Source: a virus
Lineage: Duplodnaviria; Heunggongvirae; Uroviricota; Caudoviricetes
Length of the DNA: 64,000 nt
Strand: one strand, 5' to 3'
Virus record (IMG/VR): IMGVR_UViG_2609460125_000009
Shown: one piece after another, positions 9,225-50,300 of the stretch
Layout of the letters: the number at the start of each line of letters is the position of its first letter
Numbering within the stretch: the stretch's first letter is position 1
The notes under the pieces: generated by a model
What the model was told of the DNA's origin: nothing
The model's input: only the letters and a program-made list of their open reading frames with translations
Databases searched by the model: none
Made by a program: the position numbers and the translations under genes

Positions 9225-9299
9225 GATGGTGTAGCTCAGCGGTAGAGCAGTTGGCTGTTAACCAACTGGTCGGTGGTTCGAATCCACCCACCATCGCCA
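9225..9299 (+). tRNA. tRNA-Asn (anticodon GTT)
   Basis: Manually folded cloverleaf: acceptor gatggtg/caccatc, D-arm gctc-agcggta-gagc, anticodon loop ctGTTaa, T-arm ggtgg-ttcgaat-ccacc, discriminator G + CCA. Confidence 0.85.
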
Positions 9300-9304
9300 A
9301 TTTA

Positions 9305-9391
9305 GGGGAGTTAGTCCGTAGAGGTAGCGGGGTAGACTGTAAATCTACTGTCATTGCGACTCGGGTGGTTCGACTCCATCACTCCCCACCA
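9305..9391 (+). tRNA. tRNA-Tyr (anticodon GTA), type II with long variable arm
   Basis: acceptor ggggagt/actcccc, anticodon arm gtaga-ctGTAaa-tctac, T-arm ggtgg-ttcgact-ccatc, discriminator A + CCA; D-arm pairing less clean. Confidence 0.75.
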
Positions 9392-9395
9392 AATT

Positions 9396-9471
9396 GCCGG
9401 TTTAGCTCAGTTGGTAGAGCGCCTGCCTTGTAAGCAGGATGTCAGCGGTTCGATCCCGTTAACCGGCACCA
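9396..9471 (+). tRNA. tRNA-Thr (anticodon TGT)
   Basis: acceptor gccggtt/aaccggc, D-arm gctc-agttggta-gagc, anticodon arm cctgc-ctTGTaa-gcagg, T-arm agcgg-ttcgatc-ccgtt, A + CCA. Confidence 0.85.
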
Positions 9472-9835
9472 ACACAACAGGTAAGAGCATTGGGCGAATC
9501 GGCGATACTGACCCACAAGCCCGTAAATCGATAGAGTCAGACCAGTGCTCTTACCGTTGTGAGGAAGTGCAGCTCTTTGAAGCAACCAGAAGATAAGCAT
9601 CTGGCTTCACAACACAACGATAAGATCATTACGGTTAATCGTCGTTCATGTGCACAATGACTGGTCGAAAGGTAGTGATCTTACCGTTGTGGTGGATTCG
9701 CAGACTGATGCGATAGCTTTCTTGGATGTTAGGGAAATGCGGCCGCAAATCTTCCCTTTCGCGAGCGGTGATCGTCCGTAGTCCTAATTGGCTGCACCGT
9801 ATGCCGGAGATTCAGTACCGGCCACCACAACGGCC

Positions 9836-9922
9836 GGAGAGTAGGGAGCATGGTGCTCAAGCGGTCTTGAAAACCGTCCCATTGCGCAAGCGATGATGGT
9901 TCGATTCCATTACTCTCCGCCA
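9836..9922 (+). tRNA. tRNA-like gene, probably tRNA-Ser (anticodon TGA), non-canonical D-arm
   Basis: acceptor ggagagt/actctcc, anticodon arm gcggt-ctTGAaa-accgt, long variable arm, T-arm gatgg-ttcgatt-ccatt, G + CCA; D-arm does not fold cleanly. Confidence 0.45.
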
Positions 9923-20162: not shown

Positions 20163-20435
20163 AAAGAATTATGGCGCTTGTTGAGGAAGTCACTCCTCTT
20201 ACGCACTTTGTTTTGCCATGCCGGCAGTTAGCTTCTGCCTTTGACTATTCATGCGGCAACCCCGCATTTCGCCACAATGGGCAATTCACTTTTATGGAAT
20301 AAACTGGCCGTTGTGTCGATTTAATTAGCATGGCCTTACCATGCTAATTTATTCAACTTGTACAATCCTACAAATCTATCCACTCAGGCTTACACCGTCT
20401 TCGTTATTGTAGAAATGAGGATCATCAGCGTTGAA

Positions 20436-20651
20436 TCAGCTTAGAGCAACGACATTTGCTGCTGCTGGGCCTTTAGCCCCATTCTCGATAGAGAATTCGA
20501 CCTGCTGGCCTTCTTCCAAAGTGCGGAAATTATTACTCTGAATTGCCGAAAAATGTACAAAAACATCTTTACTGCCATCAGCAGGAGAAATAAAGCCAAA
20601 GCCTTTATCAGAGTTAAACCATTTTACTAAACCAGTCATTTTATTAGACAT
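20436..20651 (-). CDS. cold-shock protein, CspA family
   Basis: [21 protein letters not shown] ... VFVHFSAI with RNP1/RNP2-like motifs; start moved to the internal Met matching the CspA N-terminus; ~300-nt leader upstream. Confidence 0.85.
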
Positions 20652-20980
20652 AGATATTACCTTCTTAATTTTGTGAGCCACATAGTGCGGCGAGAATTTG
20701 ATCTGTATAGATTGGGACTTACTTAGGCACTTAAGGAGGAGACTCACGAAGAAGGGAAATCAGAAGATAACACTGAACTGAGACTGCTTTACTAAAACTG
20801 CTTACATAAGGTCTGTCTTGCAAACCAACGATGCTATTAACGCATACCCCTTCTTTTCATGCAACCTTTATTTTTCAAAGATAACTAATTTTTGTCACCA
20901 TTGGTTTAGTAAACGTTAACGAACCAGACGATGCCAGACACCTTTACAGAGAACAGATGCCCGCCAATTGGCGGGCATCA

Positions 20981-30501: not shown

Positions 30502-31557
30502 CTATTTGCGAGTCTTTGCCTTGCGCAACTCTTCGAGAAGCGCCAGTTCTTCTTTACTCAACATGACCATTTTGCCTTCTTTTTCGTCAGGCACAACGTC
30601 GATAATGTCATCTTGATTCTCATCTGGGAGGCTATATTCCGTCTCATCATTATCGATTTTTGTTGATATTTGTGCCTGGCGTAACTTTGGCCGCCTATAG
30701 TGGATGACGAAGTAGACCGAGTTTCCGCGCTTAACTTCCGTGTAATCGAGATATCCTATCTCTCGCAGCTGTTCCATAGCCTTTCTTACCGTCGCATTCT
30801 GAGTAATAGTGCGACTTGTCAGATTAAGTCTGGCGCGTAAACGGGCTAGTGATATTGGTGCCGGATCAGGCGGCAAACTTTCAATAAAAGTATAAAGCGC
30901 CTGAGCGGATTCTTTTCTTGAGAGTTCGTTTATAGCCCGGAGTTGCAGAAGAACCTTTTTGTCGAACTGGTAGAGTTCGAAAATCTTGGGATCTGCTTTC
31001 AGTTCGACCGTATCGTGCTTGACACTATATTTTGCCGTTTGCACAAGATGCGTTACGTAAAACTCATCAGAGCCTTTGCTACGGAACGAGATGGTATTTG
31101 TGGCAATACGGCTTAGCGAACTGTCCAGGCGTTTGCGTAACTTCGCTGATGACCTGGCGGTCGGAATGCCACACAGCCTTACAAACTCAACGAACGGCAA
31201 CGTGACAGTATCGCCAACGACCTTGTGTTTGGCAAACGCGTGGATTATTCCCACCCACGTTTTAAAGTCGTTATCCATATCAAGCCGAAGGCCAGAGATC
31301 CTTATGTCTTCGTACCCTTCGGCTTTTGCCAGAGACAGCTGTTTGAGTTCAGCAGAGGCATCCATAGAGACCATTTGCCCCTTTCTTCCTCTGGATGTCG
31401 ATTTCAGCGTCGGAACGAAGAGGCCCAGACGCATCAAAGCAACAGGCTGAACAGTGTTATTAGTGTTAGGAACCAACGTAACAACTTCGCCTGTCTTTTT
31501 ATCTGTTTCTGAAAATGCTTCAACGATCGCTATGTTTTTATTGCCGTTTTCGCTCAT
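30502..31557 (-). CDS. iteron-binding plasmid replication initiator (RepA/Rep_3-like)
   Basis: 351-aa protein flanked on both sides by iteron arrays, adjacent to DnaA boxes and GATC cluster; family assignment from architecture and general sequence character. Confidence 0.7.
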
Positions 31558-31602: not shown

Positions 31603-31722
31603 TTACAGTGGATAGTAGCACTCATCACAGCGGTTATCCTACCGTCTATAGTGGTTTTTCTCCTCTCTATAGTGGTTGCTTTGCTCCCTATAGTGGATTA
31701 TTCGCTCTCTATAGTGGATATC
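31603..31722. repeat. iteron array upstream of rep (incC-like): direct repeats ctctatagtgg at ~20-bp spacing
   Basis: ctatagtggtttttc, ctctatagtggttgc, cctatagtggatta, ctctatagtggatat. Confidence 0.75.
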
Positions 31723-31740: not shown

Positions 31741-32220
31741 ATGGCGCAACGGTTTGAGGTGGGCGGGGATCTTATTGGGTCTTTATGGGTCTCTTTGGTT
31801 CTCTTTGTGATCTGAATTACTGGATCGGGCCTGTGGATAAAAATCAGAGGATTTCAAGAACAGGTAACTCTACTCTTCTGTGGATATTTAAGGACATAAG
31901 AATCATGACTAAGAGTAGAGTTTAAAATATATCTATGTATATCAGTATGTTAATGAAGAATTAAGTCATTAAGTTATCCATAAAAGACAATGTGCTCTAC
32001 TCTCTACAGTGGATATATACAGCTCTCCAGAGTGGTTGTTTTACTCTTCATAGCGGTTATTCAGCTCTCTACAGAGGTTTCTTTGCTCTCCATAGTGGAT
32101 GGCAACACCCTTTCAGACCAGTAACCGCAACGGCTAGAGGCGATCGGGGATCTCTTTGGATCTTCTATTTGATCTTACTTGGGATCTCTTATTTGGATCT
32201 ATCCAGTGGATAACTGGGAT
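31741..32220. promoter_or_regulatory. origin-like region: two copies of a module (GCAACGG.TAGAGG..GGGGATCT + GATC cluster + DnaA box) separated by a second iteron array (31995-32102)
   Basis: DnaA boxes tgtggataa (31832-31840, perfect TTATCCACA on the other strand), near-matches at 31879-31887, 31974-31982, 32205-32213; six GATC within 32143-32200. Confidence 0.6.
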
Positions 32221-48726: not shown

Positions 48727-48791
48727 AGCCTGCTTCTGTATATATAAATAACTACATATTAATTATTAATATACGGAAGCAGGCTGTTTTA
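48727..48791 (+). terminator. long-stem hairpin terminator, twin of 1363-1426
   Basis: agcctgcttctgtatat ... atatacggaagcaggct then gtttta; same G.U position as the first copy. Confidence 0.55.
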
Positions 48792-48891
48792 TATCAGAGA
48801 CTCCCAGACCTGAACACCACTACAGAATCCACTAGAACCCCTTCCCAGACGCTTTAAAATCGATTTTATGAACCACTTTAAGGAAACCAAC

Positions 48892-49122
48892 ATGTCATAC
48901 CCGACTAATGTCGTTGCGCTCGTAGAGAGCGATTTTCTGGCCCAGGCTCGTGAAATGATGAAAGATCGTGAGCAGGCTTTCAACTTGTACGAGTGGGCAA
49001 TTAAGTGCTTGCATCTTGGCGAGCATCGCGAACTTGTTGAACAGCTTTTAGGTGAGTTGATCAATGAGGTGTTTGCCTTGAATGTTCAACTACATGGTCG
49101 AGAAAATAATCAATCACAATGA
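48892..49122 (+). CDS. hypothetical protein (76 aa)
   Basis: Start moved to the ATG with AAGGAAACCAACATG context. Confidence 0.4.
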   Translation: MSYPTNVVALVESDFLAQAREMMKDREQAFNLYEWAIKCLHLGEHRELVEQLLGELINEVFALNVQLHGRENNQSQ

Positions 49123-49706
49123 TAGATAAGTACAAACTATTCATAAAGTGAATTGTAAGTGCTAAGATCTGATAGTTTCCAGTCGTAGACTGGAGGCTCG
49201 ACCTGATGGGTGGGGGTAAGCGTCACTGGCGTCAGGTTTAAAAAAGCTCACTACCAGCGTAGAACCGGTGCCGTATAGGTGTCGGGGAAGGGGGAACCAA
49301 AGTGAGCAGAGACAAGGGTCACTTTATGATTGTCGAGTCTGGGGTGTTTCGAGAGGTTGAATCCAGTACTCCCCTTCATAAAGTGTGGGAAGATCTCGGT
49401 TCTGGGGTGCTGTCATCCATAACTTCCCAAGTCTAAGCTGGCAGTAGACTTAGACCATAACTTTTCAGGTTATGAAACGACCAGGTTGGTGAGGGATTTT
49501 TATACTCACCTCCCTGGGAGAGTATTACCTGAAAAGACAACCTCTCACTTCGTTCGAGGTGAACTTCACTCACTTCGTTCGTTCAGTTCAGGTTTATAAA
49601 AACCTGTTCTGGGAAGTAATTTGTTTATTTTAATAATTATTAACACGCACGCGTGTGCGCACGCGCGAGGAAAAAAATCGGCGCGGCGCTTGATTCAGGA
49701 GTTTAT
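49123..49706. other. ~580-bp non-coding region with hairpins, tandem cacttcgttcg repeats and GC palindrome acgcacgcgtgtgcgcacgcgcg next to an AT-rich tract
   Basis: No ORF of 60 aa or more on either strand; structures read directly; function unknown. Confidence 0.4.
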
Positions 49707-50300
49707 ATGACGACGAAGACACCAGCCCGATCGCAAGCAAAAACTCGCAAAAAAGCCAAAAACAAAAATTCTCCCCGCACCAATCCCACAACGCCTGTCG
49801 TAGAGTTCAATCCCCAGCTTAAAACCGTGAAAATCTTCAGTGATGGCTCTTGCCTTAAAAATCCGGGTGGCCCGGGCGGTTACGGTATAGTTCTCCAGTA
49901 TCGTGGTGAGGAACGCGAGTTCTCAGATGGTTTTCATAGCACCACCAATAACCGCATGGAGATGATGGGGGCACTTATCGGGCTGGAGCGTTTGAAATAT
50001 CCATGCAACGTTATTTTGCACTCTGATAGCCAGTATCTGAAAAACGGCATGACACAGTGGATGAAATGGTGGAAACGCAATGGATGGGTGACTTCTGACA
50101 AAAAACCGGTAAAGAATGTTGATCTGTGGAAGCGTCTGGATGAGGCTGCAAGTCGACATAATGTTCGCTGGAAGTGGGTTAAAGGTCACGCCGGGCATCG
50201 TGAAAATGAAATATGTGATCGACTCGCGAAGATCGCAGCTTTTTCCGCAGCAGATATGCCTCACAAGAAAGATATTGGTTTTGTTTACAACAAGCAGTAA
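49707..50300 (+). CDS. rnhA: ribonuclease HI
   Basis: [57 protein letters not shown] align with E. coli RNase HI; start moved to the Met with AGGAG RBS; basic N-terminal extension. Confidence 0.85.

Follow-up and report, generated by a model that had tools for sequence, protein, structure and literature searches.

What does the largest ORF-free gap within a dense block of phage genes encode? We addressed this question for positions 49123-49706 of a 64,000-nucleotide (nt) stretch of DNA, hereafter the window, taken from the Caudoviricetes record IMGVR_UViG_2609460125_000009 of IMG/VR. Because the window shares 98% identity with PhiR41_1, Cyrano, and CMS-2020a, which are Escherichia phage-plasmids, and 77-81% with Salmonella phage SSU5 and Klebsiella SSU5-like phages, it can be assigned to an SSU5-like phage-plasmid. 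The gap sits within a long run of plus-strand genes for nucleotide metabolism and replication, and an initial annotation had described it as free of open reading frames (ORFs), proposing either a lytic replication origin or a non-coding RNA (ncRNA). At 584 bp, it is indeed the largest unannotated gap of the co-directional block in the annotated PhiR41_1 genome. We found that it contains a discrete, exceptionally conserved, and previously unannotated ncRNA gene belonging to no known family, which we designate type A. The ncRNA proposal is thus borne out, as the generic hallmarks of a structured ncRNA gene are all present: a promoter, which is conserved; compensatory changes that are strand-specific, here to the plus strand; and discrete expression, seen in published RNA sequencing (RNA-seq) data from a lysogen. 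No ORF is conserved.

Strand and fold were evaluated on two alignments, A1, which comprises 58 distinct type-A sequences, and A2, which consists of A1 plus a divergent lineage (L362, L363, and L366). This distant lineage was recovered through a Dam-anchored search of IMG/VR and carries a full-length divergent homologue, scoring 160 bits with nhmmer vs. 520, in which whole helices are swapped. The plus strand folds at -210.8 kcal/mol (z = -6.0 vs. dinucleotide shuffles), compared to -171.7 kcal/mol for the minus strand. On A1, RNAalifold predicted 135 pairs, including 15 with compensatory double changes; 98.7% of cells were paired, with 184 compensatory cells vs. at most 25 once partners were slid, and a covariation score of 0.098 vs. 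at most 0.029 in these slid controls. On A2, 99.0% of cells were paired and 32 of 100 pairs showed compensatory changes (1-4 in slid controls), for a covariation score of 0.357 (at most 0.096 in controls) and support for 13 of 16 helices. G-U pairs make up 10% of paired cells, and reading these helices on the minus strand lowers pairing from 98.7% to 89.0%, which places the RNA on the plus strand. Unpaired columns were nearly as conserved as paired ones (71% vs. 80% invariant), which points to sequence-specific contacts. Two helices were broken in the divergent lineage and were dropped, namely a long-range "giant terminator" helix between ACUUCCCA and UGGGAAGU, and a closing helix (49309-12/49543-46) derived from the first alignment.

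The RNA is probably driven by a sigma-70-type promoter with an extended -10, as judged from its sequence and conservation. A plus-strand -35 element, TTCATA (49140-49145), whose TT and fourth-position A show little or no variation across A1, stands 17 bp upstream of the extended -10 element TGCTAAGAT (49160-49168, plus strand). The TGnTAnnAT pattern of the latter is kept in all lineages but the Klebsiella clade, where the TG is missing and the -10 reads TAGAAT; in the divergent L362 group, the element is TGCTAACAT. The predicted 5' end is an invariant G (G49175) located 7 nt downstream of the -10, and the 3' end would fall within a U-rich tract at 49619-49631. The resulting type-A RNA, at 49175-49631 on the plus strand, would be ~450-460 nt long, and this delineation draws on covariation, the strand test, the RNA-seq signal, and the lack of a conserved ORF. 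A CTG-N8-CAG motif near the transcription start was considered as a LexA box and rejected, by eye, because of its wrong spacing.

All structural elements described here lie on the plus strand, in a fold of about 15 helices, almost all supported by compensatory substitutions and interspersed with extended single-stranded blocks that are invariant. The RNA opens with a 5' terminal hairpin (49175-49197), the sequence of which varies between lineages with pairing maintained (six of nine pairs compensatory), and its U-G wobbles argue for an RNA over a DNA operator. This is followed by a hairpin carrying an invariant AUGGGUGG block (49201-49237, four compensatory pairs), and by a domain (49246-49307) in which the single strands UACCAGCG, GAACCGG, and GGGGAAGGGGGAACCAAAG are conserved. 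The CUCACU/AGUGAG helix closing this domain is wholly swapped in the L362 lineage, with three compensatory pairs. A central multi-helix domain (49315-49530) shows compensatory changes in all helices except two short ones. Its first four helices (49320-28/49377-85, 49339-43/49362-66, 49386-92/49423-29, and 49405-09/49414-18) include a segment, 49386-49430, that is invariant in all 58 sequences of A1; the other three are 49431-40/49445-55, 49456-62/49468-74, and 49481-94/49505-17. Two hairpins of this domain had been pointed out initially. The first, aagtcta-agctggcag-tagactt, is present at 49431-49455, with compensatory changes supporting its stem and a conserved loop. The second exists as GGTGAG...CTCACC (49488-93/49505-10), but had been misquoted, since "tccctcacc" does not occur in the sequence.

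Downstream of the central domain, twin hairpins (49540-49590, discussed below) are followed by a CAGGUUU..AAACCUG hairpin with a compensatory UA/GC stem change and then a conserved UUCUGGGAAGU (49589-49617 overall). Next comes an AT- or U-rich spacer (49618-49643), variable in both sequence and length with only 3% of its columns invariant, which is the probable termination zone of the transcript. The 26 bp of this spacer correspond to an AT-rich tract previously reported to flank a GC-rich palindrome; the two do adjoin, but the GC-rich part is a 24-nt alternating pyrimidine-purine (CG/CA) tract (49644-49667, no strand assigned), prone to form Z-DNA or a hairpin. This alternation stays perfect over 16-28 nt in all rnhA-linked lineages despite sequence drift, and the tract has shrunk to CGCGCGAG in the L362 lineage. 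The remainder of the gap (49668-49706, A1) holds a purine run (GAGG-A7), a GC-rich GGCGCGGCGC, and the Shine-Dalgarno sequence AGGAG (49697-49701) of the RNase HI gene rnhA, immediately before which a GC-rich hairpin is predicted in every clade. The A-run varies in length (5-9 A) even between nearly identical E. coli elements, a pattern suggestive of slippage.

The gap shows no sign of coding for protein. All seven ORFs of at least 30 amino acids are frameshifted or interrupted in whole clades, so that the short translated ORFs that would have spoken against an ncRNA were not found conserved across lineages. Variable sites are evenly spread over codon positions (10/8/9), with no third-position excess, and indels of 1-2 nt are tolerated across A1; a small protein gene was rejected on these grounds. 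Public records nevertheless mis-call the RNA as protein: the Cyrano record includes a hypothetical protein of 44 amino acids, CYRAN_81, at window positions 49302-49436, and in the SSU5 record (JQ965645, 79147-79911) the RNase H ORF is extended by ~170 nt upstream into the 3' region of the RNA.

The CYRAN_81 mis-annotation provides a readout of expression, since E. coli LF82, for which RNA-seq data are published (PMC9928086, Table 1 and S1 Table), carries the 98%-identical Cyrano. Expressed as log2(FPKM+5), with FPKM denoting fragments per kilobase per million mapped reads, CYRAN_81 reached 6.8-6.9 in LB, 9.0-9.3 at 1 h, and 6.9 at 6 h, and in macrophages 8.2-9.0 at 1 h and 10.3, its highest value, at 6 h (PMC9928086). 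The flanking genes ranged from 3.1 to 5.8 (upstream ORF) and from 2.6 to 5.0 (rnhA), and CYRAN_81 was 12-fold over the prophage background in LB (PMC9928086). The coverage check suggested by the initial annotation therefore reveals a signal inside the gap, 12-40-fold above either flanking gene in the lysogen. As this signal far exceeds that of both neighbors, with a 14-40-fold drop to rnhA, most transcription stops before rnhA, and the data show a discrete, lysogen-active transcription unit that largely ends ahead of this gene. In the same dataset, CYRAN_98, a UmuD/LexA-like gene (window ~60 kb), is strongly induced in macrophages, and induction of the RNA partly parallels it.

Conservation sets the RNA apart from its surroundings. 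The window was compared to eleven relatives, drawn from Salmonella, Klebsiella, Enterobacter-type, and additional lineages. Identity is 88-95% over the core at 49196-49675, vs. 73-80% for flanking coding sequences; dam, the small upstream ORF, rnhA, and the next ORFs span 66-80%, and the 70 bp directly upstream of the core 53-75%. When the 64 kb were scanned against a complete Klebsiella phage in 150-nt windows, the median identity was 75%, and the RNA region was the top island (mean 91%, peak 97%); only two coding patches, located in Pol III alpha and in a 561-amino acid ORF, reached 90%. Conservation jumps after the 5' hairpin, stays high to 49617, and then collapses. The RNA was detected in 687 PLSDB plasmids, nearly all ~105-120 kb in size and non-mobilizable, from Klebsiella (>300 plasmids), Escherichia, Enterobacter, Salmonella, Citrobacter, and Cronobacter, as well as in 12 phage records. 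It also occurs in 232 of 5426 complete E. coli genomes (4.3%), where PGAP annotates nothing at this position. Three E. coli-clade sequences of A1 (L031, L033, and L034) combine E. coli-type flanks and RNA ends with a Salmonella/Enterobacter-type central RNA segment, a mosaic that indicates recombination inside the RNA gene.

The position of the gap beside RNase HI had been read as a hint of an origin, yet the RNA is retained in lineages where RNase HI has been replaced. In PLSDB, 687 plasmids carry the RNA vs. 645 with a detectable rnhA. On a Citrobacter plasmid (NZ_CP056836; L297, 1264-5263), an IS3 element interrupts the small ORF and betT, a choline transporter cargo gene, replaces rnhA, with the promoter, 5' hairpin, and whole RNA core intact, amounting to a natural "neighbor knockout". 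The L362 lineage has an unrelated 207-amino acid ORF after the RNA, in place of rnhA. Conversely, a sister lineage (L367-L373 and L376; 30 Klebsiella plasmids, e.g., CP027615) has an orthologous small ORF and an orthologous RNase HI with a basic N-terminus, separated by a 560-bp gap with a different conserved sequence and no similarity to type A. This gap contains a candidate structured RNA of ~500 nt, designated type B (L367:4030-4580), in the slot that type A takes elsewhere, between the small ORF and RNase HI. In type B, the 5' hairpin covaries on a variable stem, several helices carry compensatory changes, and a canonical intrinsic terminator lies ~100 nt before rnhA; Rfam has no match to it. 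Types A and B thus make the locus a conserved slot in which at least two cassettes encoding large structured RNAs alternate, and such interchangeability suggests a specificity function, i.e., immunity, exclusion, or compatibility between related elements.

Near its 3' end, the type-A RNA carries a module that is also found well beyond SSU5-like elements. What had been listed as tandem repeats are two exact copies of a 13-mer, CTCACTTCGTTCG (49544-56 and 49569-81), which do not form an array, being 25 nt apart; each copy caps a hairpin of its own. The resulting twin hairpins, capped by UCACUUCGUUC (hairpin A, 49540-49560; hairpin B, 49560-49590), form a block invariant in all 58 A1 sequences, and the outer stem of hairpin B shows three compensatory pairs in the L362 lineage. 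Covariation in this lineage favors the twin-hairpin fold over an alternative pairing of CGAGGUGA with UCACUUCG. The 11-mer of the cap occurs, in pairs, in at least 49 unrelated IMG/VR contigs (nine hits for a reversed-sequence control), and 39 of 127 cap copies are directly flanked by inverted repeats of at least 4 bp and of differing sequence, vs. 0 of 38 in the control. In the cap variants TCGCTTCGCTC and TCCCTTCGGTC, positions 3 and 9 covary, from which the motif can be modeled as an outer stem, a 2x2 UC/UC internal loop, two base pairs, and a UUC triloop; its consensus is UC-N-C-UUC-G-N'-UC, with N and N' covarying, on a variable stem. Capped hairpins, found for example at L218:160-207, L210:103-147, L226:2009-2038, L180:9033-9244, L291:1385-1521, and L292:~1365-1530, mostly come in pairs and are not represented in Rfam.

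Most carriers of this motif are T4-like phages, including EC-W2, JC221, and Cr30, in which the capped hairpins are intergenic, near genes for helicase, UvsY, DNA polymerase, SbcD, and gp55, and often in both orientations around an AT-rich spacer. They resemble PeSL cassettes, i.e., terminator-like intergenic hairpins by sigma-70 promoters in T4-like genomes (PMC2839356, PMC4122927), and in phage EC-W2 a capped hairpin precedes a near-consensus promoter. However, PeSL stems are polyG/polyC without a defined loop (PMC2839356, PMC4122927), and an assignment of the twin hairpins to PeSL was rejected, since their stems are variable, without G/C runs, and their conserved part is the cap. A role as part of the T4 oriF was likewise discarded, as no copy lies within 10 kb of oriF. 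The capped hairpin may act as a module for 3' ends or termination, or may be bound by a factor common to T4-type replication systems, and the motif shared with T4-like phages may represent a widespread and undescribed phage regulatory or RNA-stabilizing element.

Comparison to known RNAs and regulatory systems yielded likenesses but no family assignment. The Rfam scan recommended initially was run with Rfam 15 (4227 models) and returned nothing at the gathering threshold for 49000-49800, nor any match judged real even at E <= 10; the best E-value, 0.06, was a viral stem-loop on the GC tract, with 21 bits against a threshold of 56. ARAGORN detected no tRNA or transfer-messenger RNA in the gap, and nothing relevant to an ncRNA of SSU5 or pHCM2, or to the motif sequence, turned up in literature searches. 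A CsrB/RsmB-type sponge was rejected because GGA is not enriched (7 vs. 8.3 expected), as was a type III toxin-antitoxin RNA, given that there are only two 13-nt copies and that the downstream gene has an RNase_H domain and is dispensable. GOLLD and ROOL are large structured ncRNAs of phages and prophages. Like them, type A spans several hundred nt with many covarying helices and conserved junctions on temperate phage elements; unlike them, it has no Rfam match, resides in phage-plasmids of Enterobacteriaceae, and does not lie beside tRNA genes. The c4 RNA of P1/P7, the CI RNA of P4, and the CA RNA of N15 are similarly lysogen-expressed ncRNAs of phage-plasmids or satellites, with lineage-specific alleles and internal repeats that have a complementary partner. 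However, these are 70-100 nt RNAs processed from leaders at the start of the operon they control, whereas type A is ~5x larger, located mid-block, and without a match to the Rfam C4 model.

Considering these lines of evidence jointly, the best explanation is that the gap is a self-contained plus-strand gene for a ~450-nt structured ncRNA of SSU5-like phage-plasmids, expressed in the lysogen and acting in trans, which we regard as probable, if far from assured. Its most likely mode of action, which we infer rather than observe, is that of a trans-acting riboregulator, scaffold, or decoy. The invariant unpaired blocks and the twin capped hairpins would then contact a partner conserved across Enterobacteriaceae, possibly a host machine or a core phage-plasmid factor, and the 5' hairpin and the 3' twin hairpins may protect the ends of the RNA. 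Several observations weigh against this explanation. Type A yielded no canonical intrinsic terminator, and in the Klebsiella clade the U-rich tract is missing as well, which leaves room for the RNA to run on as a long leader. The RNA-seq table is per gene, without strand or transcript ends, and its signal in the gap derives from the 135-nt spurious ORF only. No trans target was found, as complementarity of at least 13 nt is absent elsewhere in the window, in a search covering 64 of ~108 kb and not the host genome, and repeats of, or complementarity to, the RNA within the window are at chance level (16 11-mers vs. 14 expected). Finally, part of the high conservation could stem from recombination spreading one allele. 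A bolder proposal is that a fixed RNA slot accommodates interchangeable, non-homologous, ultraconserved RNAs of 450-520 nt as a specificity determinant, for immunity, exclusion, or compatibility or as a T4-style lytic-origin primer or licensing RNA, acting through the capped-hairpin module shared with T4-like phages; we offer it tentatively and consider it doubtful as a whole.

A leader running into the downstream genes is the first alternative to a self-contained gene. The RNA would then be the 5' untranslated region (UTR) of rnhA and the downstream operon, with its fold, or a factor acting at the twin hairpins, setting termination vs. read-through, as in P4/N15-type termination immunity or put/nut-type antitermination. 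This would account for the RNA lying on the same strand as, and in most carriers directly upstream of, rnhA, for the lack of a clean type-A terminator together with the GC-rich hairpin before the Shine-Dalgarno sequence, and for how sharply the lysogen signal falls ahead of rnhA. Mutually exclusive pairings are also possible, of CGAGGUGA with either copy of UCACUUCG, and in some T4-like phages hairpin pairs directly follow divergent promoter regions. However, the RNA is kept where a different gene follows it, as in the L362 lineage, or where betT does, as on the Citrobacter plasmid, and is found on ~42 more plasmids than a detectable rnhA. Moreover, covariation favors the twin hairpins over the alternative pairing, type B has a full terminator ~100 nt before rnhA, and a 450-nt leader more conserved than any coding sequence would be atypical. 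We thus consider a leader unlikely. Even less room is left for a DNA-level element (for instance a site of recombination or resolution, a signal for packaging, or a regulatory region bound by protein) with incidental transcription: very high conservation even at unpaired positions and the DNA properties of the alternating GC and AT-rich tracts would fit, but G-U-mediated, strand-specific covariation in 13 helices is unexpected for double-stranded DNA, the promoter is conserved and expression discrete, and no protein-binding sites are repeated other than the two hairpin caps, making such an element very improbable. That the gap encodes one or more small proteins, such as the annotated CYRAN_81 ORF to which RNA-seq reads map, is hardly credible, as this ORF is intact in only 43 of the 58 distinct sequences, every ORF of at least 30 amino acids is frameshifted in entire clades, and neither codon periodicity nor avoidance of 1-2-nt indels is seen.

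The proposed lytic origin found no support as a DNA site, but deserves consideration in the form of an origin RNA. The gap has neither a tandem repeat array nor iterons, nor a DnaA box, and the cumulative GC skew shows no turn there, rising monotonically from 34 to 62 kb, although GC skew says little about origins in a phage genome. The plasmid origin is a Rep_3/iteron replicon at 30.5-32.2 kb, 17 kb from the gap, where a Rep_3 initiator gene is encoded on the minus strand (30502-31557). The 21-bp iterons of this replicon form two sets, at 31645-31721 and at 32000-32098; a perfect DnaA box lies between them (31832-31840), and GATC-rich repeats cluster at 32148-32200. At the same time, the element encodes a T4-type set comprising UvsW (an R-loop helicase), UvsY, RecA/UvsX, a gp32-like single-stranded DNA-binding protein, SbcCD, Pnkp, and RNase HI, and T4 origins are primed by promoter transcripts, which together make an R-loop origin RNA a legitimate rival. 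In such a scenario, the transcript would form a persistent R-loop at the AT-rich 49618-49643 and be processed by RNase HI into a lytic primer, with the alternating GC tract as a structural boundary, in the manner of ColE1 RNA II or the T4 ori(uvsY)/ori(34) transcripts.

Beyond this toolkit, found without a dedicated lytic initiator, an origin RNA would be in line with the T4 annotation, where the oriF primer is the uvsY transcript, and with the enrichment of G-runs in the 5' half (18 GGG vs. 9.3 expected). It would also fit the order of features, namely a promoter, ~450 nt, the AT-rich tract, a polypurine run, and an rnhA with a basic N-terminal extension, and the twin capped hairpins flanking AT-rich spacers near replication and recombination genes in T4-like phages. 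The parallel to ColE1 extends to a ~450-550-nt structured transcript directed toward an AT-rich or polypurine site, the involvement of RNase H in the model system, and exchangeable non-homologous alleles between related replicons. However, type A lacks both homology to ColE1 and a promoter for an antisense RNA I: no such ColE1-type regulator was found, Rfam gave no RNAI match, and the one promoter-like site on the minus strand (49181 to 49152) faces away from the RNA. Nor is expression coupled to the Rep_3 replicon, and the RNA is kept where rnhA has been lost. Like T4, the element encodes the UvsW/UvsX/UvsY/gp32/gp46-47 set and has a promoter-driven transcript that precedes an AT-rich tract. 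The T4 unwinding element, however, directly follows the promoter and the RNA needs no fold, whereas here 450 nt of selected structure lie between the promoter and the AT-rich tract. In addition, the lysogen expresses the RNA, the target of selection is the fold together with the single-stranded blocks and not the AT-rich tract (3% invariant columns), the skew does not turn at the gap, and the hairpin motif is absent from T4 oriF. Type B, in the same slot, ends in a strong terminator that would release the RNA, unlike a persistent primer hybrid. Overall, an origin-priming role for the RNA appears improbable.

If the gap is indeed a self-contained ncRNA gene, the most conserved stretch of the 64-kb window is an unannotated RNA, transcribed in the carrier state and rising inside macrophages, on phage-plasmids that are common in clinical Enterobacteriaceae and carry resistance genes. 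Bacterial and phage RNAs this large and with so many covarying helices are rare, and earlier ones proved to be ribozymes or large ribonucleoprotein machines. Its function is directly testable, given a defined promoter, a fold model, two natural cassettes, and natural neighbor-deletion variants.

The genes around the RNA and other parts of the window offer additional observations. Upstream, an 84-amino acid ORF (phrog_5343; 48868-49122, plus strand, stop codon at 49120-49122) is syntenic with the RNA slot in all lineages. It is preceded, directly after dam, by an inverted repeat with 17-bp arms (AGCCTGCTTCTGTATAT/ATATACGGAAGCAGGCT) that enclose a 25-nt AT-rich loop and are trailed by GTTTTAT (48727-48785), likely a terminator that divides dam from the small-ORF and RNA units. 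Downstream, rnhA (49707-50300, plus strand, ATG at 49707) is a neighbor of the RNA and no obligatory partner. The Pfam RNase_H domain covers only residues 40-178 of its product, and residues 1-39 (49707-49823) form a lineage-specific, Lys/Arg-rich N-terminal extension outside this domain; the extension differs, but is equally basic, in the type B lineage, and could be a nucleic-acid tether. In phages with a distant RNase H (47% identity), the upstream gap is absent, and a search for RNase HI across genome contigs returned only chromosomal rnhA genes and was thus uninformative. Elsewhere in the window, the cspA thermoregulator 5' UTR (RF01766) is matched over its full length with 185.7 bits (20411-20829, minus strand), implying a cold-shock protein gene with an RNA thermometer on the phage-plasmid. 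The only tRNA genes of the window, four in number (Asn-GUU, Tyr-GUA, Thr-UGU, and Ser-UGA), cluster at 9225-9922, where Cyrano annotates three. Next to this cluster, the hypothetical gene CYRAN_43 (window ~10.9-11.5 kb, minus strand) is expressed in LF82 at 723-fold over the prophage background.

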